A stretch of 52,656 bases of DNA, filler included, from Catajapyx aquilonaris (GCA_000934665.2; 2 parts of 2 records of this genome joined end to end with filler, not necessarily neighbours in it); one strand, 5' to 3'. Shown: positions 6,909-52,656, counted from the first letter of the whole stretch. Numbers and translations: made by a program. The notes: generated by a model from the sequence alone, not told the origin.

Positions 6909-6922
6909 TAAATCTGTAATAA

Positions 6923-8351: not shown

Positions 8352-8356
<5 letters not shown>

Positions 8357-9482: not shown

Positions 9483-9619
9483 CGTGTAATTAAATGGTCA
9501 AAAAACCAGTAAAACCGCACACGTGGACAAACGACCCTAAGGCACACCAATACTTTTGATGTGCGAATAATGTTCTGTGTATAGGATTGAGACATTGTGA
9601 TTAGTGAATGTTAATAATG

Positions 9620-10750: not shown

Positions 10751-12852
10751 TAACTCCTTTATTTCTATTTCAAAAATTTGAACTTTCACTTATCGCGTTT
10801 GGTGGCAGTTCGATCCCCGGGTCACGCAGAGGATATGTGGATAGAGTTTAGATGGGTTCTTTCCGTATTCGCGTGGGTTTCCTCGGGGTTCTCCCGTTTC
10901 CTCCCGCAATCAAAATCCATCACACGCACAAAATGATTAAAGTCGGTTCACGAAAAGATGATCCCCTAAGAGGCCCACGGCCTATCACGGGGCACCGCAA
11001 AAAAGCTCCCCAGAGGGATAAAAACGGGGGGAAGAAAAGAAAAACGGGGGAGAAACTCGCAAAAACCCTCTTCTTTTCCGTTTTGGGCCCCGTTTTACCC
11101 CAAATTTGGGGTGGCGAGGAAGGGTTGTGACCTTGAACCGAAAAATTATCGCCTGCGGCGGGCCCTCCCCGGCTCCACCCCTCCCCAGGAGATATTACGT
11201 GCACCACTGACAGCGACAAATGTGGGCCCGAAGACGCCCACCCCCCAACTATACCCTTGTCCCCCCCCCCCCCCCCGAAAAAAAAGTGNCCCCCCCCCCC
11301 CCCTCAGAAAAAATTCTGGATCAGCCGCCACTGATTGCACGTGCCCTAATGACCCTTAAAATTTTACATTTTAAAATTTTTTAAATGATTTATATTATTA
11401 TCCTTATGGACGATAAATTATCCTACCAAATTTTATTGAGATCAAAAAATTGGGGGTGAACATACTTTGAATTTTATTTTGCATGCTCTGTCGTGGAATC
11501 TCCCATCAATTAATTGCAAAAAAAAATGTGCGAAAGACGATATGCAAATAAATGCTACACCGGAATCCGCCAGAAAATGCCCCCTCGTTGCGCACCCGGC
11601 AGTATTTATTCCCCCTCCCTATATCACGCTTTTTTTCTTCTAAGCCTACATTTTATATCTAATTTTTCAAGCCGCGATGATCGTACGATTCGTACCATTG
11701 GCCTTTTTAATTGGTGATAGTTTTTGCACTTTTTGAAGCAATTTCGGGACTCTTTGGGCCTATACCGAACCAATTCCTTCAGAGGCATGTTTGTTTCGTT
11801 CGGAGTATTTTTTGTGCTTCTGAAAGGACCAAAATCGTTCAGAAATAATATGATCATACGAATCATGTTGCAGTGACTCGTATGAGCCGAAAGGAGGTTC
11901 CAATCTAGAAAAAAATTTTGGTAACATCTATAGTCTAATATACTATGCAAGTGGAAACGCGCTGTAAGCGGTGTTCAGTAGAGTCCAGAGCAAGTGATAC
12001 GTGCTTGAACTTTGTGTCTTTTGCCCAAGTTTTGTGATTTTCTGTCAAGTTTATTGTTGTTGTTAGGTTTTTGCTCTGGTTTGTGACCTTATACATTTAT
12101 ACTTTAGGCCTTTACAATAATTTGTGTTTCTCCTTTCGATTTTATGTAACATCCTCCATATGCCCGCAAAAGTAAAATTTTCGTACTTATTTGAGATTTT
12201 TTCGTGGCTATTTAAATGCTTATTTCAGGGTTTTTTCGTGCCTAAAAAATCGAACTATATACAGTATAGTTATACCTTATCCGTAATGAAAAGTAATGCT
12301 GCGTTACATTGATTGCTCTCGTAGTTTTAGCGGGGAGGTGCCTGACGAACCCCCCCCCCCCNTATGAAAATCTCCTAGGTACGCGCCTGGTTGCATCACC
12401 TACTATTTGTTCTAACTTGTAAATTAGAATACGTCAGGCACCATTACTATTTTGTCAGGAAATCAATCAGAAAGCAGCATCAACAGCTTTTGAAGACACT
12501 TTACCAAACCTACAATTACACTATGCAACTCGATATTGCATACGAACAATACCGGTGCTTGTATAGAAATAATTAATGGCACGACTCTCCAGCAAGAATT
12601 ACCCCAGATCAGAATTAAAAATATATATAAATTTTGGAGTTTTATACTCAAAAAAGTGCAGTTTTCGGACTTTTTTCCTGAATCCAGCGGCACGTGTATG
12701 GTGTGAAATGGTTGCGAAAATATCATGTATAATACGTGTATACATCGGTGATTCGGTGTGCCAAGTATCGGCACTCTCAAAAGGTCAGGTAGCCGTGACA
12801 GATAGACTACATTTGGGCAAACTTCTGCTTTAGTATACAGTATCGAGAGATA

Positions 12853-14234
12853 CAGGGTGGTCGAAAAAGAAAACGTGGTCGGAGGTCACCAGGTCACGCC
12901 TGCCAAATATGGCCGCTCTGGAGGTTGCGATTACTGAAATAATCGCTCGAGTAAATGATAAGTTGGTAGCACTGCAGATTTGACGGAACTCATGCCGCCT
13001 ATTCATGCTACAGCTTCCCCGGGGTCTGCACTAATCCCCCCCGATTCAAAGGGGAATAGTGCAGGGCATGGATGTGACCTTCACCCTTACTAGTTTTAAA
13101 GTTAGGGTGTTTTACCTTGGGCCGGCAGAAATAGGCAGTATACCAAAACACATTTCCTATTGGCGACGATTTACCGGATTTACCTCATATTACCGGATAC
13201 CGGGTCAAGTGGTATCCAAAAGTTGTTTCCATGACCTGAAACTGAACCAGACGTCAGCTGCTGACCTGCAGGGGGGGCAGATAGGGTTGGTCCAGTCGGT
13301 CCTTCTCGCCGCACCGGTCCCGTGAAACGTGCATTCCATGACTTGCGTGCAGGAGTCAGACAGCAGGTGTACAAAGAGCATTGTCGCAGGTGTCGCATCC
13401 AGATCGTTCCAGCGGTTCGCCGAAGTGCCTGTAGAGGCTTCGGCGTGGCACACGCATACGAGTCCACCACCGATGCAAGAAGCTGCCGCACCACTAATAA
13501 TAATGTACTCCTTGGTCCAGGCAGGCAACATGGCCTGCAACAGACAGCAGCACTGTACAAACTGTACTTCGCTACTGCCCACTTTCACAGTTTCACTTTC
13601 CCTTTCCACCCAAGGTTTCCGGTTTCTCCCTAAACCCATCCCTCCTCCCCTCCTTCTCGAGCCCGTCTGCTGGTTATCGCTTGACCCTTGCAGCCGGCGT
13701 TTATGCGGGGTTTTTGGGGGTGGAGGGTGGGATGGGGGCCAAGACAAGGAAAGTCTGAGAGACTCACTAAAGACTAAACTAAGAGGCCCTGCACCTGACA
13801 GATATGAGTCAACTAAACGTATACATGCCTCAGGGCTTTCCCCGCAGTATTCATTGTCCAACTGCAGGACGTTTCTTTCGTCTCACGAAAGCTGGTGAAT
13901 GTGCGCATTATGGACCAGCTTCTGAGTGCCGCTTCTGATCTTGGAACGGGTTCGAATCAAACAATAATAATTGATTGGTCGTAAACGGTCGGAAATAGAA
14001 AGTTTGAATGAGAATTGACGTCACAGGGGTTCGACCATGGAGCTGAATATTTAAATGCGGATGATCGGATCTCTGGGTGAAATAGCCCCATCCTCAACCT
14101 CTTTGCAGAAGCATTATTTTCAAGCCACTTGGACCGTTTTTGTGGCGGTAATTTGCGAAAATCTGAGATGCTATTAGCCGTGACTCAGAACTCCAAAAAA
14201 GACCCACAAAGGCACGTTAAATTCCCACACCCTG
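12853..14234. mobile_element. Possible Tc1/mariner-type non-autonomous element with GC-rich cargo
   Basis: TA|CAGGGTG ... CACCCTG|TA; only a short TIR match. Confidence 0.4.
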
Positions 14235-14997
14235 TAGATCTACTTACTGAAATCAAGAGCTAATGCTGAAATGTAGTGTAACTTCAATTACCTGAAGTTG
14301 AGGTTGACCTAAGGGTTGACCACTCAGTTTGGAAAGGTCGCCCGGCATCCCCATGGACCATGGTGCTGATAGTGTTGCAGGAGGCACATGAAAACAGACA
14401 CTTCCCACCATGTGATCCAGAAATACGACTCCAATTTCTCTGTTTAGTTACAAATGTGAGTAATTAAATCTGCAAAATTAAGTTCACATAAATCATGTAA
14501 TGTATAAATGTAGTATATAAATAAGTTCAATTTAATCATCATAATAATAGCAAGCATGAACTAGCAAGCTATAAACAACACATGGGATTCCCAGTACCAT
14601 TGCTGGTCAGATGATGGATTATTACGCTTCGTGATTTTTGCAGCCGGAAATAAAAATAAAATTTCTCCAAAGAAAAAGAGGGAGATCAGTTTAAAACATA
14701 CATTGTTACTGATTTTTTAAGTACCAAGAAGTAGGCCAGTCTCAGTTGTGGGCTGAACTATTGCATAGAGTAGTACAGTTGTAGCGTGCATACACTGTGC
14801 TGTGCTGTACTGTACTGTACCATACAAAATAAACATGCATTGGAAGTTGATTACTGTATGAATACTGTTCAGTACTTACTCTGTATTGTTCTGTATATTA
14901 CTGTACGATGAAACTTATGAAGTAGGAAAACATTAATATGTAGGACACCTCCTGTCCTCCTCCCTATATGTTGGACAGTTTATTCAGAACCTTCAAC

Positions 14998-28511: not shown

Positions 28512-31500
28512 GTAATTAAGTGAAACTGCAAATGGATAGAATAATTGGTTATGTATTGTTTGAGTGGCGCCCCACAGTTGTTTGTTTTATGATATGTACT
28601 GTTTATTATTGACGGTGGCACTTCATTTCTTCACAATGGTGAGATTTTAATGAATTGTTGTCCTTCATACACAGCTACACTTAAGAGAGAGTTGTCCTAG
28701 TTTTTGAGTTCCCAATATTTTGGATTATCTCTATTCCATGTAAGAAGAAACTAGGCACCAACTTGCCAAAATTTGGCAAAAAAATTAAGCAAAATTGCGA
28801 AAGTGGAGAGGGATGGAGAGAGAGAGAGGTGGGGGGAGGGAGAAGGAGGGAGGTGGGGGGAGGGAGAGAGAGAGACGCGCGGACCAGGCAACAACATCCA
28901 ATGGCGAAGTACCGAAGTAAGATGGTGTGGAGGTAGTGCCCGCGGCCGGAACTGCATTTAGGGGAACTCCGTGGTGGTTGGTTTTTTTAGGCGGTCAGCC
29001 ACCACAGTAGGGTATTAATAATATAGATGGCTTTAAAAAAAATTGTCAGCCAAGCATTGATAAGTGGGATTTTCACATGCTTATTTGTGCATGCTTGTAG
29101 TGCCCACATTGTCTTGTAGTAAGTAACTTGAAACTGATACAGAGTTTCTCTGGAAGTTCTAATGATTATTTATTCATTGTCCAGGAGGCCGCAATCTGAA
29201 GGTGTGCTGTGCCCAGTCTCAGATTGAGGCTCTGCAGAACAACTTAGCCATACCTCAAGGCCTTCTCTCTCGCTGTCCGGCATGCTACCAGAATCTCAGG
29301 CTGTCCCTGTGCAAGCTGATTTGCAGTCCTGACCAGGACCGCTTTCTAAAAGTTGCAGCCTCCAAGAAGGATGACAAGGGTCATCATGTCACAGATCTGG
29401 ACTGCTACATTGGGGAGTCATATGTTGAAGGAACATACCGCTCCTGCAAGAATGTGATAATGAGTTCCACAAATGGTCCTGCTATGGATCTATTTTGTGG
29501 ACCTTGGGGAGCTTATAGGTGCAATGCCCATCGCTGGTTTGATTACATGGGATCTATCAAGAATGGATTCTCGCCATTCAACATCCGATACCTGTATGGG
29601 GATGAAGCAAAGGGGAAGATTCAGCCTATGAACCCATCTGTCACTCCTTGCAGTCAACCTTTGGAGGTAAATGCTGCATCCAAGAGCACAAAAGGAGTCG
29701 CAGGATTTATTTGAACAATTCTATAATAGAACATGAATTTCTCTAGAGAATTTAAAAAAAAAACCTGTGTAGATTGTGACCTGTTACACACTATACATAG
29801 TAGTATTTAAATGAATACAGTTGTCGTGCATTCCTATGACTATTTAAATGATAGCTTGGATAGCATTTTTTAAATGAATAGAACTGATCATTTGAATATA
29901 TCATAATTGTATCAGTTTTGCAAAAATTATACAAAGTGTTGCAACTGCTACAGGTCTCTGTCGACACTCGTTAGCAAATTATTTTTTTGGCTCAATGTGC
30001 CCTTTTAACTTTCAAGAAGGTACTTCGGAATAGTTGTAATATCACCATATTGTTGATATTAATTAAGTACAACCTGGCTATAACATACCTAGAGAGCAAC
30101 AGAAACTTGTCTGTTATTGAATGCTTGTTTGATCCCAGGCTCCCAGCACTGGATTCTCCAAGTATTTCTGTGACATTTAACTAGACCTGTTCAGGATGGA
30201 CATAAGTTTCAGATTGGAATGATGCAAGTAGATAAGTGACAGTATTTGCTTGGATGTGATAATTTCTTGAAAGTTATAAATTCAAATGAATTTCCATGCT
30301 TAAGGCCATTTTGACCTTTTGACATCCAATGTTGAGTCAATTTTGCAAACTGGTTAAATAGGAATTAGCTTACTGTTAGTATTATTATTAAAATGATCAT
30401 TTCATTTGGAACACACTTTATCCTGATAAAATGGTGCTCTTTTGTAACCTAAGTGCCACAATGTGTATACCACTTGTGTTGCAGAACTCAACTCATGGCT
30501 GCAGCTGTGTGGACTGCCAGGACAGTTGTCCAGTGGCTCCACCATTGCCTCCTCTCCCTGAAGAATGGAGGATTCTGGGTGTGGATGGACTCACTTTTAT
30601 CATGGCTGGAGTGTTTGTTGTGGGTGTCATTCTGTTTGTCATCTTTCTGCTGCTGAGCCGCAAGGAAAGGACTAGATTGGGTGAGTATTCTAATAAATCT
30701 CTGCAAAAATTGCCTGAATACTAATGCATTTGTGTTACAGTCACAGTCTCTTAAGTGTTGTATTAAGAAATATGTTGTTGCTAAATTCCCTAGCAGTAAT
30801 ACAAGTATACTAGTATGTTGCTGTAAAAAGCTTGTGAAGCACTTCTGTTTGGAAGGCCACTGGTTCAAAGGATTTGTGGGATTGTAATGCTGGTTCACTG
30901 GTTGTATAGCACCGTATGTAATCATTTATGGCAGTTCATGGTGTGGGTCATTGCCTGAGATATACATAATATAGTTTTGTTGGATGTAGCTATTGCAGTG
31001 ACATTTTACTGAAATGTTTAACTGGTGAGCTCAGCCACTTGTAGCTCATACTAGCAATTCTGGCTGTGGAAAGTAAGAAAGCTGTGGCTGAAGGGACAAT
31101 TGATCATGTCAAGTGAATTTTCGTACGTGATTGTTATATATTCTCTGGAAGTTATCACTTATTACAGATGACCAATATTCATAGTGGCCACATCAAGGTG
31201 ATTTAAACGGATACGGTTATGACAATGACCAAGAAATTTGTCAATCACATACATTTATAATAAAAAATACGTCGCGACATTTCATGCATGCAATGAGGAG
31301 CGTGGTGAAAAAAGGTGATAACCATCATTTTTGTCATTTTTGACCTAAACACCTAGAAACTATGTAAAAGACATGACAAACAGTTTGGTATACTCCAAGT
31401 TCACATATTATCTCACAGACTAGATCAAAACCCGTATTCCCTATGATTTGTGAAGAGAATGCAAACGTCAATTCACTCTCCTGAAAAATTACGCTTTTGT

Positions 31501-34500
31501 GGGTTATCACCTTTTCCCACCACACCCCTGAAATGTAGGCTAAGAGGAAAAGATTATTATGGTACTGAATATACTGTAGTTGATAAAGAGTTTTGTATGG
31601 TTATGGATTGCAATTGAAAAAGGACTGTGTTTTACAGTGAAACCTCTGTGTAGTGGATTCACCCTGCCCTGGAAAAATTTTAAAGACAAGTTTTCCCTAC
31701 ATTGGATAATACTAAATTTTGAAAAGAATTTAAAAGTAATAAACATCTCTCTCAATTGATGCCCCTGAATCCATTATTCAGAGCCTGTCTCGGGAGGCAG
31801 GTCCAAGTTGTCATGCTCCGAAATTGAAGAGGTTTTTTTTTGCCATTTTTGGCATTTTAAGTCACGAAGTTGTTCCACAGATTTTTTGTTAATGCCAGAC
31901 ATTTTTAATGTACGTTCGATTTTACTCATGTGGGAGCTATGTAAGTCAGGGACTGCCTGGCATCCTCATTTCCATATTCATTTTCATGTGTTTTAACCAC
32001 ACTGCAGCTGGTTTTGTATGGATGCTTATTTAATGGCATTTCAAATTACTTAAGTTAGTCATTGCTATTCTTCATGATCAGTTATTATTGTTGGTGATAA
32101 TCAAACCTCACATGTCAATGTGTGACTGAAAGTCATTTTGTCAAGGTAGACTGCATATTGATACTATGGATGGTAGTTGAGTGGGGCTGGAATTTGTTAC
32201 AGGAATCCAGGCTGTCAGTGATACTCCTTAACATGTTAATCTTTGAGATGTGTTAATGATTTTCCTTCCAGGCTTTAATAATCTATGAATGAAGTTGTAG
32301 ATAATGTCACTGTCTGAGGATTAGTGGCAGCATCTCTGGTGCTGACTGTCGTTTGGCAAGGATCAAAAACAACCAAATCCGAATTCTTTTGCAGCATATG
32401 CAATGAATTCAAATCGTGCCGAAGCGATAAAGCAAGCAGTGGGTCGTCGACTGGCAGGCTTGAACCAATCCCAGTTGATGGTTGATGAGGTGGAGGAGGA
32501 AGTCAGCCCCCTCCATGGTTCCTCCAGTATGTTTGCCTTTGCAACCCCCACACACTTTTTCTTCATTTTGTTTGCTTGCTTTGTGTGCAATCAAGTGAAA
32601 GGTACAGTGCTTTTGGGAAGGAAATAGGTTGGCTTTTATTTTGGAATGCAGAGAGATTGATTGGGTGTGCCAGATGTTGGTTTCTGCACTGCCAATTTGA
32701 CTCACCTGCCTCTTTGCTTTTCTGTGGTTCTTCTTGGAAGCAGTGTCATAAATGCAGAAGATAAATTGGGAATTTTAAAACAATAATAATAATATGCAAG
32801 ATATAGAATTTCATTTACAAGAGAGATAGAGAAGTCCTTGTTATATCTCATGGTGTATTATGTTTAAAAAGTTGCAGGGAAAAATCATGCTGTATATTTT
32901 GGAATTGAACCAGATTCATATCAATGGAAATGTCGTGTTCTCAAGTTTGGCATGGAATCACACGTACTTTTGGAAAGTCCATTAATGAACATTCTGATCA
33001 TGACTAACTCACTGTCACTATTGAAGGTGAGGCGACATTAGTACTGATAATGATAATGAACTAAATTATGTAACATTAGTATGGTGAAGGATGCATACAC
33101 ATTTTAGAAACCATTACATATCAGTAGTACAGTACATTACTAAGGCCTGACTATTAACTCATGTTTAGAAGAAAATGCCTGATTACGTAGTGAATACCTA
33201 TGTACAACTGGATAATTTTTTCTTCGTTTGAATTATACAATTGGGCTGAGGCGTTACAATCCTAAACTCTTGTTAGACTGAATTTAGGTGTGACATTAAT
33301 ATTGGCATTGACACAAGGTTATCCAGACTGGATTAGAACTGCTGATAATATGTCACCAAGTGGATTAGTAACTTGTCACTAGGCTTGCCTTGACATGAAG
33401 ACAGTTATTGTCAGTGTGAGATTGATTGCTGAGATCCCATCATCAAAGCAGTCACATGTGAAAATAACTTAGTACCAAACTGATTAATTCAATTAGGATC
33501 AAAGCCTTCAGTTGCATGAAGGCTCACCAACTTAGGATCACAATATCTTTTGAAGTGGAATGATGAAAGTCTGTGTGACCTCGACACAAATTTTGGGTTT
33601 TAAACTTGTAAATCTTGCAGCATACCATGATAATGAAAGAGAGATAACAAGGGCTCCCTGAAGCATACTTCATAAGCAATTGAATAATTTCGAAGGAAAC
33701 CTATTGTTTGAACCCATTTGCATTTCCATTGATCAGCATGATGGATTTCTCATGACTTAAGCATATGCCATGTTTCTTAATTAAGCTTACATTGGTATCA
33801 GCTTTAATACGAGGGGGAGAGAAGAAAGGGAGTAAGTGGTTCACAGATAGAAGTGCATGTTTGCTTCTTTCAACCAACTCAAATTAGTAGGCTCAGCAAC
33901 ACCACCTTGATGCATGAGTTTCCGTAACCTATACAAATGTAAGCTTAATTATGAAACACATGGTGTAAGTTATTTACTTCAAGTTATAAAATAATGTGTG
34001 TTATGCATCCCGAAAGTCAACACATATATGTGTTATTGGAAATATTTCAAGTTCTCACCTCTCAGTCCTGGATGAGAAACAACCACAAGTGAAATTTTTA
34101 AGAGGGGGCACACTTAAGATCTTCACTGATAACAGAACTGAGCTCATTTATGGAAAATTACTACATATAATAACATGCATTGGGTGATGCCACCTTCCCA
34201 GATCATGTGCTAATTGCATAACAAATGGAATTATTATGGCATCAAAACAAGATTCACTTGAGTAAATTTTTGTCCATGAGCCATTTCAGTTCAAGTTATC
34301 AAGTGACAACAATGGTATGATTGCACATGGCATGTGTGGGTGTCAAATTAATTGACAACTTATAGAATGGCCACCTGATGTAGCTTCTCAATGCATGCCT
34401 AGTTGTGTGAAGTTTTATGCATGGTTTTTCATGGGGTGTTTATTCAGTCTCAAACTCAGAAGAACATAACTGAATGCATATTTGCAATATTGACTAGCAT

Positions 34501-37500
34501 TTTTGCATGACTCCTGAGTACTACATGTAATTTGTGACCTTACCACTACTCACACTGCTATCAACATATTCACATTCTGCCAAGACACATTAGATTGTAC
34601 AGTATTGTGCACTGTAGGCACATCACATCCACAGGGATTGTGTATTAACTGTGTTTCTGCAAGATAGCAAGGAGCAATGTGTCTATGCTCACTCAAATAT
34701 TAATCACGCTTTACTTTTCTGCTTTATCTGCTTCCTTACACCTGCCTTCTGAAAATCATGACAGCACAGAAGTCATCGGACATTACAATCCTGCCAGCTC
34801 ACTGAAGAAATCAGCCTTATTGCTTATTGCATTTCCTTATTCTTCTTCCCCCATTAAAGCAAACTGTTACCATTTGTGCAGACACTTCGTGGAAGTCACA
34901 ACTGCTGTGAACCACCCTTCACCCTTTAACTGTACTTGACCCCTTGCTGTAGTCAAAAAAGAAAACAAACCAACATCCCGTTACAGGACTGGGATGAAGC
35001 CATGTGGACTAGCAGTCTGAACAACACGAGACGAAATTCAGACTCATGTTCCCATTTTGTTTTATATTTTACCTTGATTGTTCTTATAATTAATAATAAT
35101 TTAGTTGTGTTTTAGTTTTTGAGTGTATTTTGTTATACACTTGTGCCAGTCATTTGTTTGGTGATGGTTGTTGTGAATTTTGTTGTTTCAGTAGGATAGG
35201 TACTTAACATTAATGACATTAACACCATTTATAAACAGAATATTTTCACACTTTACTTTACCCGTGCTTCTTGTAATGCAACTTTGCTTTCATTTGATCA
35301 GCTTTGCTGCTTTTATTTTGCAATATTAAAAGTATTAAATGAAGCTGGTCAATGTAAGATTGTGTACCTTAGATTCCAAAAATGAGTTTGGGACTGAATT
35401 ATGCCCAGAAATGTTAAAAGCAATGTGCCTCATGGAAAAGAAATCACCTTATATCCATTATTTGTGATAATTTTGTGGATGCTCGTGAATTAAATAGGCA
35501 CTTTTTCACCGGCCAAGTAAGAGCCAGGAAGAGAAGTGCAGATGCAATGCCTTCCCATGTCCATTTGCCTTGCAATCAGGGAGTGAACGTGAAGCAGGAG
35601 TGTCTCATGAAATTTTCTCAGATAAAGGTGTGAGCTGATTTTTTTCCATGTGGTATGATGATATACTGTGATTGTTGGGGAGAGAATTATATGCTGAACA
35701 ATGCTTGCATAGCAGTAATTTATTAGTAATTCTAGCTAATCCAGTCGCATGTTTGCCTGCTGTGTTGTTAACATACAATTTCTTGGCACAAGTATTATCT
35801 ACGTGTGTGCTAAGTGCGGATTATTCGTAATCTGGTGCTTGCCTCCACAGGCAACCAAGAGAGCAGAGTTGGATCTGTTTCTACTACATCACTTCAGGAG
35901 GATGAACGTAATTCATGCCTTAAGCGACTCGGAGAATGGACTGAAAAGGTTTTACAGAAGGGCTTCACCCACTTAGGCACATGTGAGTTTATTATCCGAG
36001 CCTATACATGCACAAGTCTTTATATTAATTTAAAGATATATGGTTGGCAATTAATGTGTATGAACATCCCATTCTCTTATGCAGTTTGTGCCCGGAAACC
36101 AATACATGTGCTGGTCATTGGCCTGGCTGTGGCAGGAGGATTGTGCTATGGAATACGCTTCATGAAAGTGACCACTGATCCTGTAGAACTTTGGGCTGAT
36201 CCAAAGAGTCGCTCCCGAATTGAACGAGAATATTTTGACAAGAACTTTGAGCCATTTTACCGTACTGAGATGATCATAATCAAGGCTGTTGGGTTAGATA
36301 ATGTCACCCACAACACTACAGAAGGAATTCAAACTTTTGGTCCTGTCTTCAATAAAGAATTTCTTATGGAAGTCTATAAATTGCAAGACTACTTGGCCCA
36401 TGAGGTGCGTATCTTGTTGTAGTGCATGACTTTTACCCAAATACTTCAGTTTTATTATGAAGAAGAATGACTAATCCCATCTTTTGCAGCTTCAAGGGGA
36501 GAATAATGAAACACTCTCAGACATATGCTTCAAGCCTCTTTATCCAGATATTGACCACTGTACCATTATGAGTGCCTGGGGATATTGGCAGAACAATTTG
36601 GAAACCTTTGAGGAGGAACGAGAAGTTGAAGGATACATTTATAATTATTTGGACCATTTCAAGTTTTGTGCCAGGTGTGTTGTTTGGAAGAATGGTATAT
36701 AAATCATGCTTGATTTTTTGACGAACATTATGAATAATTAAGTATTGTCAAATCATACTGTTAGAATACAAGTTAATAAGCAGCACTAAAGCAGTTGACT
36801 TCATGCTGACTTTTGACACCTATTGGAAAATCAATGATGTATTGAGGCCTTTACTGTGAAAAAAAGGCAACTCTGTTGATCTTAAAACTTTAATGAAAAT
36901 TACCAAGCTGCTAGATATTACTGTAAGGGGCAGAGGGTGCTTGAAGTGTATCCCTCCATTCTGCATGAAAAATTGAAAGATTTGGTGTGTTAAAAGAATA
37001 GTATTATGAAGCAATAAATAATGATCCATGACAGTAGTCTGTAAGAAAGTGCATGAGAGGATGAAGTCAGTAAAAGCTAGACTATTGCAACATCTTGTAG
37101 TGATTGTTGTAGTTTAAACTTTGTCACGTGAATGCTACTATACAGTATAATGAGCTTAATTTTTGCATAGCAATCCGACAGCCATTCAAGATGCTGTAGA
37201 ACTTCATCAGAGCTGCCTAGGTGAATATGGTGGGCCAATTGATCCAGCAGTAGCTCTGGGAGGGTTTTTGAAGCCTGGAGAGACATTGGAAGGAGCACCA
37301 AATTATCAGCTGGCCAATGCCCTTGTTATAACATTTGTGGTAAACAACCACTACAACAAGACCCTCCTCAAACCTGCACTCAGTTGGGAAAAAGCGTAAG
37401 TTTCCATACCTTGAGCTTTTCATGTGCTGTCAGTAAGCTAAAAAGGAAGCTCATAATAATTTTTATATTCCTATTTATAGGTTCATCAGTTACATGAAAG

Positions 37501-40500
37501 AGTATGTGAAGAATCAGGATGCCCTTCACATGGATATTGCATTCAATACGGAGCGTTCCATAGAAGATGAACTGGAGAGAGAATCACAGTCAGAGATATC
37601 TACTATAGTCATCAGCTACATGATTATGTTTGCATATATTGCAGTTGCACTGGGCCACTGGACCAGTTTTAAGAGACTTTTCGTGAGTGGAAGTTTATGC
37701 TTATAATTTATTGAGTGAGAACAAGAGTTTTGGAATGAATTTGAGATGCAAGCATAAGCAAGAAGTAAATGGAAGAATGGGAAGTTTGCTTCTTGCTCTC
37801 ACTCACATTTTTGCTACAACTTATTATTATTGCTTGGGAACACATTTTGATGTCTTGATATCGAAATATGGTTTCACTACTTTACACCTAATAGTTGTTG
37901 ATGGTATTTAGATCATGTGTCCTGTATTTTTCAGATTGAGAGTAAGGGTACACTGGGCATGGGTGGAGTGGTGATAGTATTGGTGTCAGTGGCAGCCTCA
38001 GTTGGTTTCTTTGGCTACCTTGGAGTGGCAGCCACCCTCATCATCATTGAAGTGATTCCTTTTTTGGTCCTGGCTGTTGGAGTGGACAACATATTCATTT
38101 TGGTTCAGGCATACCAGAGGGATGTACGGCAGCCTGGAGAAGATCATGCGCAGCACATTGGCCGCATTGTAGGGGAAGTTGCCCCATCTATGCTTTTGAC
38201 CAGTGTATCAGAGTGTTGCTGCTTTTTCCTAGGTGAGATCATGCTTTTGAGATTTTGCTCACATAAGCTTGAAGTGGTGCTCATAAATGTGTTGGTTATT
38301 GTTTCCAGGTGGATTGTCAGACATGCCAGCAGTAAGAGCCTTTGCATTTTATGCTGGAATGGCCCTTCTATTGGATTTCTTGCTACAGATTACATGCTTC
38401 GTGGCATTACTCTCACTTGACACGTGGCGGCAAGAGGTATGTTGACAGGTGGAATCATGTTTCACCTGTGAGTCTTAGCATATGTAGTTCTAGGGGGGAG
38501 GAATGCAGAAAAGCACAAAGCATCAGGGGATGATTATTGAAAAACTGGATGTGGAGCTTGGATGGCTAATTCAATTTGGCCTAATATTAGCACCTAATGC
38601 TGGTAACTGTTTCAAAGTAACTGCTTGAAAACTAGCCCCTCAAAGCAAAAATATGGCTAACCATTGGAAAACCATTGTTGGGAACACAATGTCTAGGATT
38701 GCGAGATTGGCAGTTGTGTTTATTGAAGTGATGTTATATTTGTATGTACTTGAAATGTCAGGAGTTTTATTATAATTAATAGAAAAGTACTATAAAGATT
38801 ATTCTGAAAGGTTTATTTCAGGAACCCATACAGTTCTAGTGCAATGCAGGAATACCGTGTAATATAGGGATAGTGATGTGGAGGATCAGATAATAAAGAA
38901 TAAAGAGCAAATGAAGATTATGAATATTTGGATTGGATCACCCTTTCCGTCTGAGATGGGCAGGGTTGGGGGTAGTTTATATTTTTACTTTTGCAAGTGT
39001 TAATTTAGTTTACATGTGGGGTTAACTTGAGTCTCCTTTCATTGCTGACTACCCCTTATAGGGAAAGGTTATGATGGTGGTGGTGTTTGGATTGGATCAC
39101 TAGTTTGAAAGTTTGGCTAACATTGAGCTAAAAAGAATATTTTAATTGCAGCACAATCGCTTTGATGTTTGCTGTTGTGTGGAAGGGTCCAAGCTGAAGG
39201 ACACCACAACAACAGAGTCAACCATGTACAAGCTGTTCAAGCATTTCTATGCCCCTTTCCTCCTGAATGGAGTGGTGAGAGCCCTAGTCTTTATTTTCTT
39301 TTTTGCTTGGTTGTGCACAAGCATATCTGTGGTGCCCAAGATTGAGGTTGGCCTGGACCAAGAATTATCCATGCCAGAAGACTCCTATGTACTCAAGTAC
39401 TTTAGGGTAAGTGCAAGGCATATTGTTTAAGTCTGGACTGATAAATCTGCATAATGAAAAATAGGCGGGTGATTCAGAAAGCATTGCAATGGTTTGTATA
39501 TGTAAGAGACTGGTGAATGAGCAATATATGGACCATTACAGGCCTTCTGTGTAATCTCCATTCGTTTCAATGACCCCAGTCTTTTTTGGATGGTTGGGGT
39601 GCCCATAGCAACACTTCTCCACACACAGTCTGAATCCTAATGAAGGAATGTAGATCTTCCTTTGTAACGTGACCTGAGCTACTCCCCACATCCATTTTCA
39701 CTGTGTACCACTTGCTGACCTCTGCACCTAAAGCTAGACAGAAGGCACTCTACAGGCTGGCACAGTCGATCAGATTTTGTCTTAGCCATTTGGCCATGAA
39801 TTAATCAATTGTGGGACTTTCTGAATCACTCGTATGATATTCTGTTACTAAGGAAATGTTTAGATAAACTTAGTTCTTGCTGAGGTTATTCCTTAATGAA
39901 CGTCTCTTTTATTTCAGTACATGTTTCAGTTCTTATCTGTTGGGCCACCAGTATACTTTGTAGTGACAGATGGACTTGACTACTCAAAACTTGATGTACA
40001 GAACAAAATATGCAGTGGGCTTGGATGTGACTCAGATTCACTAACTGCTCAGATTTATATGGCATCCCAGAAATCTAACAGGTGGGTGTTAACAACCACA
40101 GAATTCTATGTCGTCTACAATTGAAAGTGTACCATGTCCACGAAGGGGGAAGTGTTTGAGATAACTACAGCACTTCACTAGGCAGATGAGATGAAATGTA
40201 ATAAGGAAGATTATATGAATAGTCTAATGGACTCTTTTAGAAATCGTAATCCATGTGGCTCTTTTCTTCTTCTTCACTTCAGAAATATGCAAGTTTTCTC
40301 ACACATTTCATTTGTTATTTTAATTCAGTCTTCTGCGGAAGCCGGCAGTCATTTTTTACATGCCACTTGGCAGGCAATATGCTGTGTCTCTTGAATGGGA
40401 GAGAACACTAGAATGTGACATTATATAATGGAGTCATATCCTGAGAATAGTGGTAGTGTTTTTGGAGCATTGTATTAATGAACACTGAGTTGTTGGGATG

Positions 40501-43500
40501 CAAGGAATGTGTACAGGTTGTGTGGAAGGGGTCAGACACTTTAATAATATGACATTTAAAAGATGTGCTTCATTATCTACTGATTCTTTCTGATGTTATG
40601 GATGTATCTGGCCTGGTGAAACCAGTCATAGATTCTGATTTTTTGATATGTGCATGTGTGACAGTCTTCTCTGCTATTACATGTGGTACATGTGTGATTA
40701 CAGAACATATATTGCAAGACCACCATCTTCATGGTTAGATGACTACATTGATTGGTCTAACTTTAACATGGATGATTACGCTGGCGGATATCCATGCTGT
40801 CGGGTCCATGAAGATGGGCATACCTTTTGTCCAGCTACTGATGGTAAGCATATATTAAATCATGCACGTTTATTATTAAGAAGGTAAGGTACAGTGTAGG
40901 TGCTCTCCTTTTGCAGAAGAGAATGAATGTGAAAACTGTGAAATTCAATTTGAAAATGGGAGGCCAGATGCAGAATCTTTTAAACGCTACCTGCCTTGGT
41001 TCCTGCAAGACAATCCAGGGGAGCAGTGTCCAAAAGGAGGACATGCTGGATATGCCCAGGTACAGTACATTTTTAGTTGCTATCAAAGTAAGTGGCACAA
41101 GTGCATGCTTCAGTGAATCACTACTGAAATTAACTTAAGGAAAACTGGGTTCTTTTACTGGATCTAGGACAGGGCTATTCAATTGGCGGACCGCGACGAT
41201 GTACAGGATAGTTTTAAGTAGCATTAGAAATTACTAATTAATGATTTTTTGGAAAAAGTGCTACCAATTTTATCAAATACACACCAATTCAAATCTCCCA
41301 CTTTCACCTAAGCTCGTGTGACCTTCAACCCCCTCCCCTCCAAAAAATGTGCCTGTTATGGCTTGTTCACCTTGTGCTTATGAAATGGGCTTCCCTCTGA
41401 AATTTTTCTACCTACGTGCCTGTACAGGACATCATAAAGGGCGAAAATGTCTTAATAGGCTCTTCTACCCGTGCTGCACATTTTTCTATTTTCAAAATTG
41501 AACATCAAGTTTGTATGTTCAGAAAATTCTCACTCACTTTCGGACTACCTAGAGACTCAATGTTGGCATGCTGTCATCTAATTAGCTGAAACTCCAGGGC
41601 GAAGTTCAAAAATTCCAATTTTAAAGGGACACTCCACTCAAAATGCAAGTTGGGCTCTAAAAATCGGGCAAAAAATCCTGATTCCGAGTGTATAAGCAGT
41701 TTTTCTGAGAGACGAACGGTAAGGCCAGGGCGAGCCGTCAAAGTTAGGCAATTCGCATCTGCCGCAAAACAGCAGCGCCTCCCCCGGGACTGGGCAGAAA
41801 TTGGGATAATCTTGCGCCATCTTGATCCACGCCATGGTCCGCGCCATCTTTGGTCCGTCCCACAGGTTCATCCCGCCACCTCTTGACCCGACCCGACTTT
41901 CAGCCCTAAATCACTTTCGCCTAGGGCCCGGTGGCGGCGCTCACGGCGGTGGCGGACTGGGCTGGCGGGGCAGCTCATTAGCAGACGACGCAAATTCTGA
42001 GTCTTTAACCCCTCGTCCTGGCTCTTCTGTTCCGCGTAGAAAAAAACCGATTGCACCTTCGGAATCAGGATTTTTTGCCCGATTTTTAGAGCCCAACTTG
42101 CATTTTGAGTGGAGTGTCCCTTTAATGCTTTCTTTTCTACTCGCATGTTTTTGTTTGTTTGTTTGTTTGTTTGTTTGTTTGTTTGTTTTTTTTTNGGGGG
42201 GGGGGGGGGGTGTGTTCTCCCACTTTTTCACACAATCAAAATCCATCACGACATAGTCAATGATTCAAGTCAAGGGAAAAAAGAGGGCCTAAAAGCCCCC
42301 AGTCGAGTAGACCTATCATAGGGTATCCAGTATTAATTTATTGTTCTTATTATATGAAGTACTGTGGAAAAATATTTGTGATTATTAAAATATTAATGTT
42401 TCCTTTGCTATTAGGGAGTGAAGTGGAAGCGTGAATCAAACACAAGCGTGGAAGTTGGCTCCAACTACTTTATGACATATCACACTATCCTGAAAACATC
42501 TAAGGACTATTATGAGGCCTTGGAATGGGCTCGTGCAATATCAGCTAATATAACCGACACCTTGAATGCAGATCGTCCATCAGAAGCTCCAGCAGTGGAG
42601 GTGTTCCCCTACAGCGTGTTTTATGTGTTTTATGAGCAGTACCTGACCATGTGGAGGGATGTTCTGACTTCCCTTGGAATTTCACTGGCCGCCATATTTG
42701 TAGTCACCTTCCTGCTGATGGGGTTAGACATCTACTCCTCGTTGATTGTCATTGTCACAATCACCATGATCGTCACCAATCTGGGAGGGCTTATGTACTG
42801 GTGGGGCATCTCCCTGAATGCAGTCTCACTAGTCAACCTGGTCATGGCCGTTGGAATTGCCGTCGAATTCTGCAGTCACATAGTACATGCCTTTGCGGTT
42901 TCTGATGAGGAAGGGAGGGTGGCCAGGGCGCAAGATGCCCTCATCAACATGGGCAGCTCTGTAAGTATTGGGATTTGGGATCAAGCACTCTGTTGGTACT
43001 GTCAACTAAGTTTCAAGACACCTGAAAAAGTCATTCAATTTTAATTATGTGGCTAATAATTAGGTGACATACAGTAGATGCCACATTCCTTATTTCATAG
43101 GCGAGTTGTTAGAACTAATAGTGGGTGTGAAAATATTAAATGTGTGACAAGATGTCTAAAATTTATCAGGTTGTGGTTGTCTGATGCTTGTCAGTAAAAT
43201 AATTCAATGTATTAGTGCTGATTGCGAGTTAATAGTGCTTTTATAATTGTTACTACATTTTAGGTGCTGTCTGGAATCACCTTGACCAAGTTTGGTGGGA
43301 TTGTCGTCCTAGGATTTGCGAAGTCTCAGATCTTCCAGGTGTTTTACTTCCGGATGTATCTAGGAATAGTGCTCTTTGGAGCAGCACATGGACTAATATT
43401 TTTGCCAGTTCTTCTCAGTTATGTTGGTGAGTGACACATTTTATATGATAAATTGTGTTAGTTTTTAGTGTCAGGTGTGTTGATGTAACACTTAATGTCT

Positions 43501-43610: not shown

Positions 43611-45198
43611 TGGAGAGGATTTTTGTGATCATAATATAAAAAGGATATATTGCAGGAAAATACATAATCTGTGATAATTGACTACAGTGCAGCATTACTT
43701 TCTGAAGCCAAATGCTTTCAGAAACATACCGAGGCATTTGAAAAGTCAGCATACTTCCAGACTAATCTGCGATATTTTTCTTGGTGTGCAGGCATGAGGA
43801 TGGTACTTGTGGCCAGCCAACGCGTCCAAAGACTTGAATCAATATTTCCAATATTTTCTCAGCCAAGAGTCAAGTGAAGGGGGGAGTATGATTTATAGAT
43901 CTTAACTAAGAATTCTGATCTGATGGCTTAACTGGTAGACAGATTTTGGACATCTACTCCCATCATACCTGGAAGCGGGAAAAATATGCTAAGCCATGCA
44001 TGTGGCCAGCATATCCCAGTGCATTTAGTGCTTTAAAAAAATACATCCCCCCCATCCCTTCCAAAGTTGTATTTCTTTTGTATGTGAAACTCTCTATGCT
44101 TTTCGGGACAAAGCTGAGTTTTACAGTGAGTTGGGCCCAAAGTGCTGTTTTTTGCGGTGGACTTGGAACATTCCGTCTCCACTCTCAGTGCCTCATGAGT
44201 ATTCATGTTCCCATTTTCCCCCTCCATGGAGCTGAGACATCTGAAGACAAGATTTAACAAAAGGACATTAGTGGCATAAGTGAAATTAATGCTCTCTGGC
44301 TGTAAGGTTCACAGTGACACTTAATTGAGCTGAACCACTACACGCATGTAACTTAAGATCAACTGCGCTTAAAGTAGGCATAGAGTATTACCAAATGGTT
44401 GTGAAAGAATTAGAAATGTCAGGCACAGCAGAAACATTGTGGCACATTGATCAGTGGCATGTGGCAACCTATTTTATACTCGCTGTGGTTTGCTTAGGGT
44501 GCAGTCAGCCATGGTTGCGATGCAAAATCCCATTTTTGTATCACTTTTGTACAAGACAATAGGTGTTCGAAATGGATTGCAACACATGCAAACAACAGTA
44601 AATCACTTAGCTTCACACTCAGCCATGTTTATCAAACTCGGAAGTGGTAATTTTGTAGTCATGGAACCACAACAATTGTTTGCTCAGTGTATTATTTTTG
44701 TGCCTCTTGAGACTTTGATGCAAAGAGTGAGTGAGATTTTAGGAGTGGATTTTGCAGTGTGTCAGAGAAGAGTGGATGGAGGCTACCTATTGTAAGTGAT
44801 GATAATGCTATTATATTAATGATTAAATGACTGGAAGTAAATGTGTGGTTTGCTTTATGTAATCAGTTGCTTTTAAGGAGGACCTGTCCCATTATCCTTC
44901 AATCCTATCATAAGTAAATTAATCATTTTGGTAATTGGGGAGTTTAGGTCGGCGCGAAATACAGCTCTGTTGTGATACTTAATTGAAAAACGAGTGTGCA
45001 GGGACCTAGTACTGACGCAGAGGAGTGCGGCAATTGCAATTTCAGCGCAAAAAACCGCGTAGAACAGAAGTTACAGGAATAATAACATTACGTGTTGTAC
45101 TTACATTACATGTTCCGATTTCACCTGGCGGCGGTCAAGTTTGTTTACTTACAGCGATACCAATAGTCACCCTGATCGATACTCGATGCCATTCGAAA

Positions 45199-47428
45199 AT
45201 GGAGGGCTTTCAAGTTCGAAAGTGCGAAGGATGTCTCCTGACAAGTTTCTTATTCTTCCCGATGGCCACTGTGCGCGAGGATCTACTCAAGTTTCTGTTA
45301 AACCATGGACTCATAAGTGACAAGCATACGTATTTGTGGACTTTGTGGGAGTGGATGCCAAGTGCATTGGGAGAAGAACACCTTCACTTGTGAGAGGACT
45401 GTCTCGCTCCCAAAGAAAAAAAGGAGGCGCCACAAGTATACCCGTTCCATTTTCACTGGTACATTTTTTGAGCGCTCTCACCTTCCTATTCAGACGATCT
45501 GTGGCATAGTATTTCAATGGCTGACGAGAGATCCTCCTCGGCAGCAATTCCTAGAGAGAGATATGGGAATTGATCACAAGACCGCCATAGACTGGTCTTC
45601 ATTTTGTCGTGAGGTGTTGATTAACTGGGCAGTTGGGCACACGGAGAAGATTGGTGGGGAAGGAGAAGTGGTAGAAGTGGATGAGGCTAAATTTGGAAAG
45701 AGGAAATACAATCGCGGGAGATTAATAGATGGCCAGTGGGTGTTTGGAGGCATACTGCGAAGTAACCCGAAGAAGGTGTTCATGGTAATGGTAGACAGGC
45801 GAACTAGTGAAGCTCTATTGTCAGTCATTCAGGACAAGATATATGACGGCACTACTATTATGAGCGACTGTTGGAGGGCTTACGATTGTCTGGAGAGGGA
45901 AGGATATGAGCACCTAACAGTGAACCATTCCGTAAATTTCGTGGATCCACACACTGGAGCCCACACACAAAACATCGAAAGAACGTGGAGGGAGGTTCGC
46001 TCAAAAGTCCCTAGGTAGGCCCTTCAATTTCCTACGAAACTACGACTTTTGGCTGTTAGTCTACTGGTTGCCGTGTCACGCACGAGCGACGTACCGTGCC
46101 TGGCAGGGCCACAAGACGGACAGTATTGTTGCGGTCACCCCAAAGCCATACAGATGACACCGACACAACGGGAAGGGCCTCTTTCGTTAATCAATCTGAT
46201 GGTTGGCAAAGCCACAATAGTGTTCGTTGGCCTGCGGCGCCACAAGACGGACAGTAAATGTTGCGGATACAGAAACCCACAATAAGCGCCCAGCTCCGCT
46301 ATCGCTCCGCATTAACTAAAAATATCACGCACGGGCGACGTACCGTGCCTGGCAGGGCCACAAGACGGACAGTTTTGTTGCGGTCACCCCAAAGCCACAC
46401 AGCACAGCCTTTTCCGTTAACATAGATGCAACTTGGCGTAGGCTAATAACGAAAAAGACTGTTCCCGTTGTGTTGGTGTCATCTGTATGGCTTTGGGATG
46501 ACCGCAACAATACTGTCCGTCTTGTGGCCCTGCCAGGCACGGTACGTCCCCCGTGCGTGATATTTTTAGTTAATGCGGAGCGATAGCGGAGCTGGGCGCT
46601 TATTGTGGGTTTCTGTATCCGCAACATTTACTGTCCGTCTTGTGGCGCCGCAGGCCAACAAACGTTATTGTGGCGCCGCAGGCCAACGAACACTATTGTG
46701 GCTTTGCCAACCTTCAGATTGATTAACGAAAGAGGCCCTCCCCGTTGTGTCGGTGTCATCTGTATGGCTTTGGGGTGACCGCAACAATACTGTCCGTCTT
46801 GTGGCCCTGCCAGGCCCGGTACGTCGCCCGTGCGTGATATTTTTAGTTAATGCGGAGCGATAGCGAAGCTGGGCACTTATTGTGGGTTTCTGTATCCGCA
46901 ACATTTACTGTCCGTCTTGTGGCGCCGCAGGCCAACGAACGTTATTGTGGCTTTGCCAACCCTCAGATTCAGATTGTGCGTTTTGAATCCGCAACATTTA
47001 CTGTCCGTCTTGTGGCGCCGCAGGCCAACGAACGTTATTGTGGCTTTGCCAACCTTCAACCTGACACTAATATACGTATCAGTAATTATTATTATGCCCT
47101 CATCGTGTTCAATAAATATTTCATTACGAAAATGTCACGGGAAACCAAATGATCGGCATCAGTCAAAATGTCACGGCGGCCTAAATGACCTGCAGCCAAT
47201 AGTCCGACAGCTAGTTGACCTGCAGCCAGTATATCATTTGTACTCATTGGTCACCATTAACCCTTACGTCAACTTCACATCTTAAAACGCAGGTATGGCA
47301 GAAGGAAACACCACTATGCTGGATACTTAGCGGAATTTATGTTTAAAAGGGTCTATCCTGACCACCGCGAAAGGATGCATTATTTTCTGGAAGCAGCTGC
47401 CACCTTGTACCCGCCTAACACGCAGTAA
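45199..47428 (+). pseudogene. Merlin/ISXO2-like DDE transposase: frameshift near 45328, intron-like interval 46015-47292
   Basis: CxxC zinc ribbon, DWSSFCREV, KIGGEGEVVEVDEAKFGKRKYNRGR, WVFGG, GTTIMSDCWRAY, HLTVNHS.NFVDP.TGAHTQNIE; after splicing ..VPR|YGRRKHHYAGYLAEFMFKR..TLYPPNTQ*. Confidence 0.9.
46076..47057. repeat. ~250-bp unit in tandem and inverted orientation (foldback) inside the Merlin intron
   Basis: Forward copies start at 46076 and 46325; reverse-complement copies run 46464-47057; recurring core GCCACAAGACGGACAGTA.TGTTGCGG; symmetry centre ~46432. Confidence 0.92.
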
Positions 47429-48769
47429 GGTACGTGACATATACAGTTCCTTATCGTTATAGGGCTAGAGTATCGATCAGTGTGACCTACGGTGTGACTA
47501 TTGGTATCGCTGTAAGTAAACAAACTTGACCGCCGCCAGGCGAAATCGGAACATGTAATGTAAGTACAACACGTAATGTTATTATTCCTGTAACTTCTGT
47601 TCTACGCGGTTTTTTGCGCTGAAATTGCAATTGCCGCACTCCTCTGCGTCAGTACTAGGTCCCTGCACACTCGTTTTTCAATTAAGTATCACAACAGAGC
47701 TGTATTTCGCTCGCGCCGACCTAAACTCCCCAATTACCATTATTTTTTTCATTCAGTCAGTTTATCATGGATTTTTCCCGGCTATGACCAGGTGAAGACC
47801 ACGCCTTGCCATTACAGGTGACTGAAACATGACTGTGAATCCTCCAGTGACTTGTCAGATACACACGACAGAGGATTTAATGACGAGGTAATAATAATGA
47901 CGTCGATGACATGAACAGAGTATACACGATACACATTCATCCAGTGTCAATATTATGAATACATAAATGACGAGGTAAGCAACTGGCAGGCAGCAAGAAC
48001 AAGCTCCCTCAAATCTCCCAGTCTTTCCACTTCTCATGTCACCAAAAAAGAAACTTACTGAAAATGTGCATCCACACCATGAAAAGCTTGCCACAGGATG
48101 GCATACGCAGGCAGCATTGTTAACTCTCATCACCCAGGCCATGCCGTCTCACCCACTTGTGCTGATGACAGCTATCCTCCAGGCAACATAAATCCATGAG
48201 GTTAGTATGATTGAAGATGACTCTAACTTGCATCCACACCAGTCAAAAAATTGCCATGAAATACACTGTACTCCCTATTATTATCTGTGATAATGAATGC
48301 ATAGGTGTTCCCGGATAATCAGTAAGCATCCAAAAATGGTCCTACAGGACATGAAAATTATCTGTTTGCATATTTTAAATGAACTACTGTACATAGTGTA
48401 TGCAGCTTTAAATAGGGTTTAATCAAAATAATAAAATTAACCATAGATTTTTACACGTAGTTTGTCTTTTGGATAAAGTGTGTTACATTTCTTTAGTTTC
48501 AAGCCACTGATATAGTATTTTTAAATCTTGATTTCTAGCTTTTGTTTTTAGTGATGCACAGATATAATCTGCACCCCCACCCCATATAATCTAGTCTGGG
48601 ACCTATTGAGCACAAAAATCAGGCCTAACTCTGCACTTTTTGATATGAAGGTGCCACTTGGCAAACATGTTCCCCAGGCCTTTATTATTGGCAACACTGC
48701 TGTAACATATCAGTATGGGTACACACTTGAACATTTCACACTCCATAGATGTAATCCTCAGCCATTTTA

Positions 48770-51807: not shown

Positions 51808-51958
51808 GTGCAGGTGGAGAGTAAATGTGTAATATATGATGAATGTGATTCAAATAACGGAATTCCATGTGTTAATAACACAGAGCCTATTGTGCTGGAG
51901 GAAGAAGAAGGAAGGAAGGCATTTACAGCACTATGTCCTGATTTGGCAAAAGTGTTGG
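51808..51958 (+). CDS. N-terminal-domain exon of a second NPC1-like gene (tandem paralogue, partial)
   Basis: tttctag|VQVESKCVIYDECDSNNGIPCVNNTEPIVLEEEEGRKAFTALCPDLAKVL G|gtgaga; same Cys pattern and same 0/1 phases as exon 28373-28511. Confidence 0.8.
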
Positions 51959-52656
51959 GTGAGAATTCTTACAGCAAATGAATTTTGCTGTAATAGGGAA
52001 TTAGTGTAGCAAATATGGTATAGCAAGCATATTTAGGTTATCATGCCAAGAAGGAACAATGTGGCAAGTTTTATCAGCTAGCTTTATACCTGAAAATTTA
52101 AGACAGGTGAGTTGCCCTACCCTGCCTACCTTATGGGCTTTTTGTGTAGTTCTGGCCTGGACCATTTGTGGGTTATGAGGAATTGCTGGAGGCATAATCC
52201 CTTACAATTTAATGCCTTACATTAACAGATTTTGTGCAAAACATCAGTCAATGTACAGTCTAAAGCTGCAGAGGCGGCCTTGTGAAAATATTTTAAACTC
52301 ATCTACAAACAGACATATGCTTGTAGTAGTCAGCATGGCATCAGCCACAAGTTGCAAATATTTGCCTACAAGATTAAACAGCTTAAGGCACATTGCAAAC
52401 TCCTGTAGGCACTTCAGTTAGGCACTCTATATTCAGTACATTTTGTACATAGAAGAACATAGGGATGTTTCTTTTTCAGCCGGGGAAGGATGGAAGACAT
52501 GCTGCACAACGAAGCAAATCAAAACTTTCCAGAACTCGATTGCTTTACCTCGTAGCATATTGGGTCGATGCCCTACTTGTTTCCGAAACTTCCTGCAGAA
52601 CACTTGCAATCTCTTGTGCTCCTCGCAGCAATCTGAGTTCATAGAGGTTACAAGCA

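Follow-up and report, generated by a model that had tools for sequence, protein, structure and literature searches.

Why should the intron of a transposase gene be filled by a giant foldback, and is such a structure there for the transposon's own use? The question is raised by a stretch of 52,656 nt from Catajapyx aquilonaris (GCA_000934665.2), called here the window; its length includes filler, and it joins two parts of two records that may not be adjacent in the genome. In it lies a complete Merlin-type DNA transposon, which occupies 44930-47738 between the outer ends of the two terminal inverted repeats (TIRs). A preliminary description had noticed a giant hairpin-forming inverted repeat in the intron of the Merlin transposase gene and had read it as a possible self-silencing cassette. 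Our analysis confirms the observation and supports the interpretation in part; self-silencing of Merlin by its intronic foldback appears unlikely from the sequence. We propose that the foldback probably belongs, in nested and rearranged form, to a repeat family that is high-copy and prone to folding back, and that it entered the Merlin intron or was built there before the transposon multiplied and is now a passenger.

Repeat search, BLAST and MAFFT alignment resolved the foldback into two related units, A of 127 nt and B of 122 nt (together 249 nt), in good agreement with the ~250-bp unit of two ~125-bp subunits, forward and inverted, that had been described. The units are laid out as A-B-A, a 44-nt loop and an inverted A-B-A-B-B, all inside the Merlin intron (Table 1). 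As to the boundaries given earlier, the forward span (46076-46402) holds, whereas the inverted part begins at 46447 and not at 46464. A central stem had also been singled out; the pairing exists, but it is no separate element and is simply the tail of unit A, with A2 carrying a 19-nt deletion relative to A3. The arms pair as 46076-46245 with 46668-46837 (170 nt, 98%) and 46211-46402 with 46483-46674 (192 nt, 96%), and further inverted pairs join 46193-46402 to 46760-46969 (210 nt, 96%) and 46197-46274 to 46981-47058 (78 nt, 94%). The extra units B3 and B4, the latter ending near 47058 in the unit alignment, are able to pair with B1, though in a register other than that of the main stem. A 17-nt core motif recurs eight times, three forward and five inverted, always within 46108-47016, and none of 100 shuffles contained any match to it. 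GC content is 0.50-0.55 in the array versus 0.43-0.475 in the rest of the Merlin element, and about 295 nt of the intron do not belong to the A/B repeat. Since Rfam gave no match at E <= 1 in 45900-47400 and a tRNA scan found no gene, an origin of the foldback from a short interspersed nuclear element (SINE) or a known RNA is unsupported.

The abundance of these units in contigs derived from public reads puts the foldback in another light. Logan contigs of four coded runs were placed on 44700-47950, namely X1, X2 and X3, which are DNA from one sample, and X5, which comes from another study; between 1007 and 1120 contigs were placed per run. In X1, X2 and X3, respectively, the host flank has a depth of 28.5, 38.7 and 17.9, and the Merlin exons have 351.7, 439.6 and 234.4, or about 12 times the flank. 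The bins of the foldback range over 1121-23202, 1413-28191 and 655-14691, roughly 40 to 800 times the flank, with the peak over the B core; the B core stands at ~700-800 times and A at ~40-125 times the flank depth. As the first description had allowed for, the A/B unit is by contig depth a high-copy genomic repeat. In addition, one end of the B core, marked by 46958/9 and 47051/2, gathers many different loose ends. Together with the depth, this diversity of ends indicates that the units form a family that is dispersed, high in copy number and bordered by many flanks other than Merlin.

The contigs also contain layouts other than that of the window. Two joints are mirror-symmetric with respect to the axis of the palindrome, whose paired positions sum to 92913: one connects 46160 to 46754 across 10 other letters, the second 46235 to 46678 across 17. 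Both stand at about single-copy depth (21-38). Opposite strands are connected by five of the 15 joints shown out of 54. From these mirror-symmetric and opposite-strand joints it appears that A/B units fold back elsewhere, with other turning points. Compared with the Merlin-borne units, the family has other majority letters at 46126, 46129 and 46312-3 as well as at the mirror sites 46507 and 46510, which makes the Merlin-borne units a minor subfamily. Two marks of foldback-type transposons are found here: inverted arms with tandem repeats around a short non-coding middle, and variable, rearranged, dispersed copies, the latter in contigs of the one sample.

One could also read the abundance in the reverse direction. 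The A/B units would then have been born in the Merlin intron, and Merlin would have seeded a genome-wide repeat or satellite-like family, as Tetris of Drosophila virilis for TIR-220. Transposon-borne tandem repeats are indeed a documented source of satellite arrays in excerpts of the Tetris report (PMC4079207), and the tandem arrays of Merlin, B-B and A-B-A, are indeed unlike in its two arms. However, the depths of B core and A cited above compare with only ~12 times the flank for Merlin itself, most copies bear letters that are absent from the Merlin-borne units, and the loose ends show many non-Merlin flanks right at the B terminus. We consider it improbable that the family arose in this way.

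A second point is whether the foldback belongs to the Merlin lineage or to this single copy. Contigs of X1 and X3 link 44917 to 47743, with 8 letters between, and reveal an empty site; in the DNA sampled, the Merlin insertion of the window is either polymorphic or missing. Moreover, the letters of the window copy at 46039, 46058 and 46068 were unseen in X1-X3, and its letter at 46064 was unseen in X1 and X2. Given the empty site and these unseen private letters, the cover of Merlin and of its foldback in this sample comes from other copies. The right edge of the array is bridged by a contig at 47007-47167 (depth 340) and, in a variant form, by one at 47024-47187 (depth 34-43). On the left, a contig at 45844-46105 runs from exon 1 into the array with a depth of 410-417, and the loop is covered at 46421 with depths of 118.5, 156.2 and 235. 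Edges and loop at multi-copy depth in an empty-site sample indicate that the hairpin is not unique to the window copy. Other Merlin copies carry the foldback too, as far as its right edge, its loop and the first 30 letters of A1 show.

These contigs also bear on the idea that the palindrome is an assembly artefact, produced by mis-joined repeat reads. Palindromes of high-copy repeats are hard to assemble, and the best run contains just 0.43 of the sampled words of 45900-47400, a low share that we attribute to the empty-site allele and the sequence variants of the sample. But contigs built independently from raw reads extend 30 letters beyond the left edge, span the right one and cover the loop (depth 118-235 at 46421), which leaves an artefact extremely unlikely.

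The same contigs clarified the outer pairing that had been proposed between 46048-46078 and 47169-47200. In the window copy it is marginal: no match is better than the 11 of 12 nt between 46044-46055 and 47193-47204, and 41-47 of 1000 shuffles did as well. When the letters are replaced by those of the majority in the Merlin-depth contigs, 46052-46078 and 47186-47211 share 23 identical letters, a score that none of 1000 shuffles equalled, and the pairing is significant there. A direct similarity between the two unique flanks of the intron was also considered and was dropped, as 214 of 1000 shuffles were as good.

Table 1. Merlin element of the window, its transposase gene and the units of the intronic foldback (positions in the window).
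Feature	Position	Strand	Evidence or remark
Left target-site duplication	44922..44929	.	8 bp; 7/8 letters match 47739-47746
Left terminal inverted repeat of Merlin	44930..45170	+	Inverted pairs of 29 nt and 217 nt, each 100% complementary
Transposase exon 1	45199..46014	+	DDE_Tnp_IS1595 match; 53% identical to homologue P0004 residues 37-267
Transposase intron, phase-2 GT..AG, 1278 nt	46015..47292	+	Homologue alignment across the split codon
Outer inverted repeat, left copy, degenerate	46052..46078	+	Pairs with 47186-47211
Foldback left arm: A1 (46076-46202), B1 (46203-46324), A2 (46325-46402)	46076..46402	+	Repeat search, unit alignment, fold
Foldback centre/loop, including degenerate A2 tail	46403..46446	+	Fold; contig cover at 46421
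Right arm, paired part: inverted A3 (46447-46560), B2 with 28-nt duplication (46561-46710), A4 (46711-46837)	46447..46837	-	Repeat search, Tandem Repeats Finder (TRF), unit alignment, fold
Extra inverted B units: B3 (46838-46959), truncated B4 (to 47052)	46838..47058	-	No main-stem partner; TRF period 93 nt, 1.9 copies
Outer inverted repeat, right copy, degenerate	47186..47211	-	Within short direct-repeat patch 47129-47231; TRF period 15
Transposase exon 2: conserved 44-residue C-terminal tail and stop	47293..47428	+	59% identical to P0004 residues 269-308, E 1e-14
Right terminal inverted repeat of Merlin	47494..47738	-	Same inverted pairs as left terminal inverted repeat
Right target-site duplication	47739..47746	.	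Partner of 44922..44929

We then turn to what the foldback could do as RNA. The whole intron is predicted to fold with a minimum free energy (MFE) of -843 kcal/mol. For 46076-46837 the predicted value is -700 kcal/mol, compared with a mean of -261 +/- 8 for 20 shuffles (z = -52.7), and the same segment folded as DNA gives z = -64.7. The main stem of the computed fold contains 319 Watson-Crick pairs and no G:U pair, with helices up to 97 bp, 8 mismatches among 327 positions and one 28-nt bulge; the earlier estimate of more than 300 bp of double-stranded RNA (dsRNA) was therefore sound as a prediction. A long, near-perfect intramolecular duplex of the kind present in hairpin RNA (hpRNA) and endogenous small interfering RNA (endo-siRNA) loci is thus a feature of the model. 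The exterior loop of the whole-intron MFE structure comprises 20 unpaired nt only, so that the predicted fold draws the splice sites close together, again as had been proposed.

Could such a hairpin be an evolved self-regulator? According to this hypothesis, Dicer, ADAR, nuclear small RNAs or slowed splicing would act on the intronic foldback and damp the transposase as transcription rises. Several observations are compatible with it, starting with the 319 bp of near-perfect predicted dsRNA and its long helices. The edges and loop of the array stand at multi-copy depth, and the structure has accordingly been kept across copies and in two sequence variants. Finally, the intron opens with AG|GTAG (46013-46020), which places an in-frame TAG directly after exon 1; a message that retains the intron would stop at once and therefore give a transposase without its conserved 44-residue tail.

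Other observations, however, speak against it. In a BLAST of the intron against the window, all 44 of 44 pieces fell within 46015-47292, and the foldback shares nothing with the Merlin exons or TIRs. It follows that its small RNAs could reach only unspliced Merlin RNA and the A/B family, and that they could not target the spliced mRNA. The complementarity to the transposase mRNA that a silencing hairpin would need was not found by BLAST against the Merlin exons in the window, and the intron BLAST against the window likewise did not find a hairpin made of the element's own transposase or TIR sequence, as in Mu killer of maize. In addition, the units come from a much commoner family that folds back elsewhere, which makes a Merlin-specific origin unneeded. 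The mismatches of the stem do not help the hypothesis either: four are A.C, giving G:U on the antisense RNA only, and four are of the transversion type. As none of the four transition-type mismatches keeps a G:U on the sense strand, there is no hint of selection for the sense fold. Lastly, the foldback-bearing lineage is multi-copy in two sequence variants and still polymorphic, and we conclude that the hairpin did not stop the spread of Merlin. The built-in regulator of the preliminary description is hence unsupported, on account of the lack of exon or TIR similarity, the far greater abundance of the units outside Merlin and the absence of sense-strand G:U pairs, and we would give an evolved self-regulator a small chance of being right. 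A bolder form would have an active Merlin lineage keep the 319-bp hairpin as a gauge of its own transcription, setting spliced, full-length against tail-less transposase, while the hairpin, excised or retained, would feed small RNAs whose action extends to Merlin RNA still being made and to A/B loci by the hundreds, that is, a transposon-borne hpRNA with reach in cis and in trans. This we regard as a long shot.

The position of the foldback within the gene is well defined. The DDE_Tnp_IS1595 profile (PF12762) matches the frame 45317-46013 at E 2.1e-14, with 54.2 bits against a cut-off of 27 and over profile positions 5-127 of 153, and the Merlin identity first assigned to the element is upheld. 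Among 2022 candidates, 1932 homologues of the transposase were found at E <= 0.001. PF12762 is present in 120 of the 120 homologues listed, which are 43-60% identical, the named ones being from insects and shrimps. Judging from the profile match, the element has the IS1595/ISXO2-type DDE domain that defines the Merlin superfamily, the eukaryotic IS1595/IS1016-like DDE transposons. Members of this superfamily make a target-site duplication of 8-9 bp. The TIRs of the window copy are accompanied by 8-bp flanks that agree in 7 of 8 letters, and the empty-site contig has 8 letters at this place, as is proper to the superfamily.

Exon 1 is matched by 120 of the 120 homologues listed and exon 2, whose frame 47294-47425 encodes 44 residues, by 113 of the 120 as well. 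In 112 of these 113, the two matches are separated by one residue exactly, which fits the intron proposed earlier and leaves that residue to the split codon. It is an Arg codon, with AG|GT...AG|G at 46014/46015 and 47292/47293, and the alignment indicates that the intron borders are exact. The three catalytic regions are all in exon 1, and the tail encoded by exon 2 contains near-invariant columns in the homologue alignment. In the window copy, 4 extra letters near 45327 cause a frameshift in exon 1; an N-terminal piece bearing CxxC (45199-45330) is in another frame than the rest of the exon and matches residues 41-71 of homologue P0007 (E 0.005). The extra letters are absent from the majority Merlin contigs (351.7 of 351.7 depth in X1), and a family whose majority contigs lack the frameshift may still be mobile. 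Two Merlin variants were distinguished at 47293-47442, a contig identical to the window (depth 69.9) and a majority contig (278.4) that departs from it in 6 letters and has 10 more inserted behind 47412.

It was noticed that AGGTA stands at both ends of the intron, at 46013-46017 and 47291-47295, which may hint at intron gain or reflect no more than the splice-site consensus. One could imagine that the whole intron is a recent gain, repeat-bearing DNA having been inserted at AGGTA of an intronless transposase gene and having created its own splice sites. In its favour, besides the duplicated AGGTA, 112 homologous proteins are uninterrupted at this place, many of them from short single-open-reading-frame contigs. 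But four of the five duplicated letters are plain splice-site consensus, and the homologue contigs could be DNA or cDNA. Furthermore, the ~295 nt of the intron outside the A/B repeat, the lack of an inverted repeat at the intron ends and the weakness of both the direct and the inverted flank tests speak against an insertion with these limits. A gain of the whole intron is in our opinion hardly probable.

We return to the nested passenger repeat. In this scenario, tandem A+B units of ~249 nt, similar to those of Tetris and foldback (FB) elements, would be the building blocks of a nested foldback that got into the last intron of an ancestral Merlin or took shape there. The Merlin lineage would have multiplied afterwards, with the foldback travelling along. 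The host element may tolerate it owing to the intronic position and to arms which, being only 44 nt apart, would snap together, so that the 1278-nt intron could shrink to a compact fold with its splice sites near each other. A transcript from the Merlin promoter or from host read-through would carry ~319 bp of dsRNA, and Dicer-2 or ADAR could process it. Small RNAs made in this way would have no matches but the A/B family and Merlin RNA that is still unspliced. As they would miss the mRNA of the transposase, Merlin would be affected, if at all, by way of a side effect and not by a built-in regulator.

Several points weigh against this proposal or limit it. The depth of Logan contigs is a rough proxy and not a copy number, X1-X3 represent one sample only, and X5 has no cover on the Merlin exons. 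The left-edge contig enters A1 by 30 letters, one below the 31-letter bridging rule; 30 letters is also the furthest that a 31-mer unitig can enter a repeated unit. Reading of the sequence beside either candidate end revealed no target-site duplication that a nested element would have left; nor were clear nested-element termini found, as the outer inverted repeat is degenerate and just 27 nt long. The A/B family is hence no more than a candidate foldback element, and an origin of the array in situ, by capture of a tandem repeat that was then duplicated in inverted orientation, is just as possible. One would also wonder why every detectable Merlin copy keeps a long palindrome that one would expect to be unstable as DNA; it could be useful to the element, and a regulatory effect of the foldback may still exist.

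If the passenger reading is true, a cut-and-paste transposon carries an intronic foldback or satellite-like array and spreads it to new sites, and a long palindrome can persist once it is in an intron. It would add modestly to what is known of how transposons, foldback elements and satellite DNA are linked. The case would weigh far more if the hairpin did control splicing or feed small-RNA pathways, for it would then represent an animal transposon with a hairpin regulator of its own, unlike Mu killer, which is a rearranged derivative locus.

Some further observations concern the element and its surroundings. The Merlin TIRs measure 241 and 245 nt, and a single 4-nt indel is the sole difference between the two ends; as they are otherwise identical, the insertion looks young. 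The outer TIR (44918-45135) has depths of 1685, 1534 and 1031 in X1, X2 and X3, above twice the exon depth, which suggests additional TIR-only derivatives such as miniature inverted-repeat transposable elements. Viral contigs were searched with an alignment of 23 Merlin sequences, and none of the 276 pattern matches was confirmed. Matches of the 17-nt motif at 60 metagenome loci were put down to chance, the best local match to the Merlin element being 32 nt at 87.5%; neither the motif nor its reverse complement was found by a full-text search of papers.

Merlin sits between two tandem NPC1-like (Niemann-Pick C1) genes on the + strand, at 29166-43041 and 51808-52655. The first contains NPC1_N, NPC1_MLD and sterol-sensing domains, and the NPC1_N domain of the second starts at 51808. 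Just upstream of Merlin and on the same strand, a 114-codon open frame (44451-44795) ends at GTAAGT (44793). A contig of X5 with a depth of 109-124 covers 44700-44795 and then departs from the window sequence; 44451-44795 may be a transcribed exon. Searches of PDB and Pfam with the open reading frames 44451-44792 and 43919-44254 gave no match.

A parallel can finally be drawn with systems in which transposons and hairpins meet. The papers listed for Merlin introns and for hairpin or endo-siRNA introns of transposons make no mention, in title or abstract opening, of a foldback in a Merlin intron. Control of an element through its own intron is known from the P element, where full-length transposase requires removal of the last (third) intron and where third-intron retention is a means of control. 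Similarly, an unspliced Merlin message would give a C-terminally shortened protein, owing to the TAG at the start of the intron; regulated splicing and repressor activity are features of the P element, and the likeness of Merlin lies in its gene layout. The hpRNA endo-siRNA loci of Drosophila provide a near-perfect duplex of several hundred bp that is a substrate of Dicer-2. They resemble the predicted Merlin duplex in its length, in its near-perfect intramolecular pairing and in coming from an arthropod genome. These loci are stand-alone transcripts with defined mRNA targets, whereas the Merlin hairpin, known from its sequence, is intronic and built of a dispersed repeat.

Mu killer, which duplicates the transposase gene and a terminal repeat of MuDR (PMC3440606, as excerpted), is likewise a transposon-linked inverted duplication expected to give a long hairpin RNA, possibly by read-through. 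According to the same excerpts it is a single locus that silences the MuDR family, while the Merlin hairpin contains no exon or TIR sequence and is apparently present in other sampled copies. The closest resemblance in architecture is with Tetris and the FB elements of Drosophila. The Merlin-borne foldback departs from them in being placed in the intron of an autonomous-type element and in travelling with it; no 8-10-bp target-site duplication, long outer flanking domain or sequence relationship was found for it. On the other hand, excerpts of the Tetris report (PMC4079207) describe tandem repeats of ~220 bp within the inverted arms, a non-coding middle that varies and many rearranged forms, the repeats also occurring in satellite-like arrays. 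The foldback of Merlin is similar in its long inverted arms of tandem repeats, ~220-250 bp across these elements, in its short non-coding middle, in the unequal number of repeats in its arms, in its many rearranged forms and in the abundance of the same repeats elsewhere in the genome.

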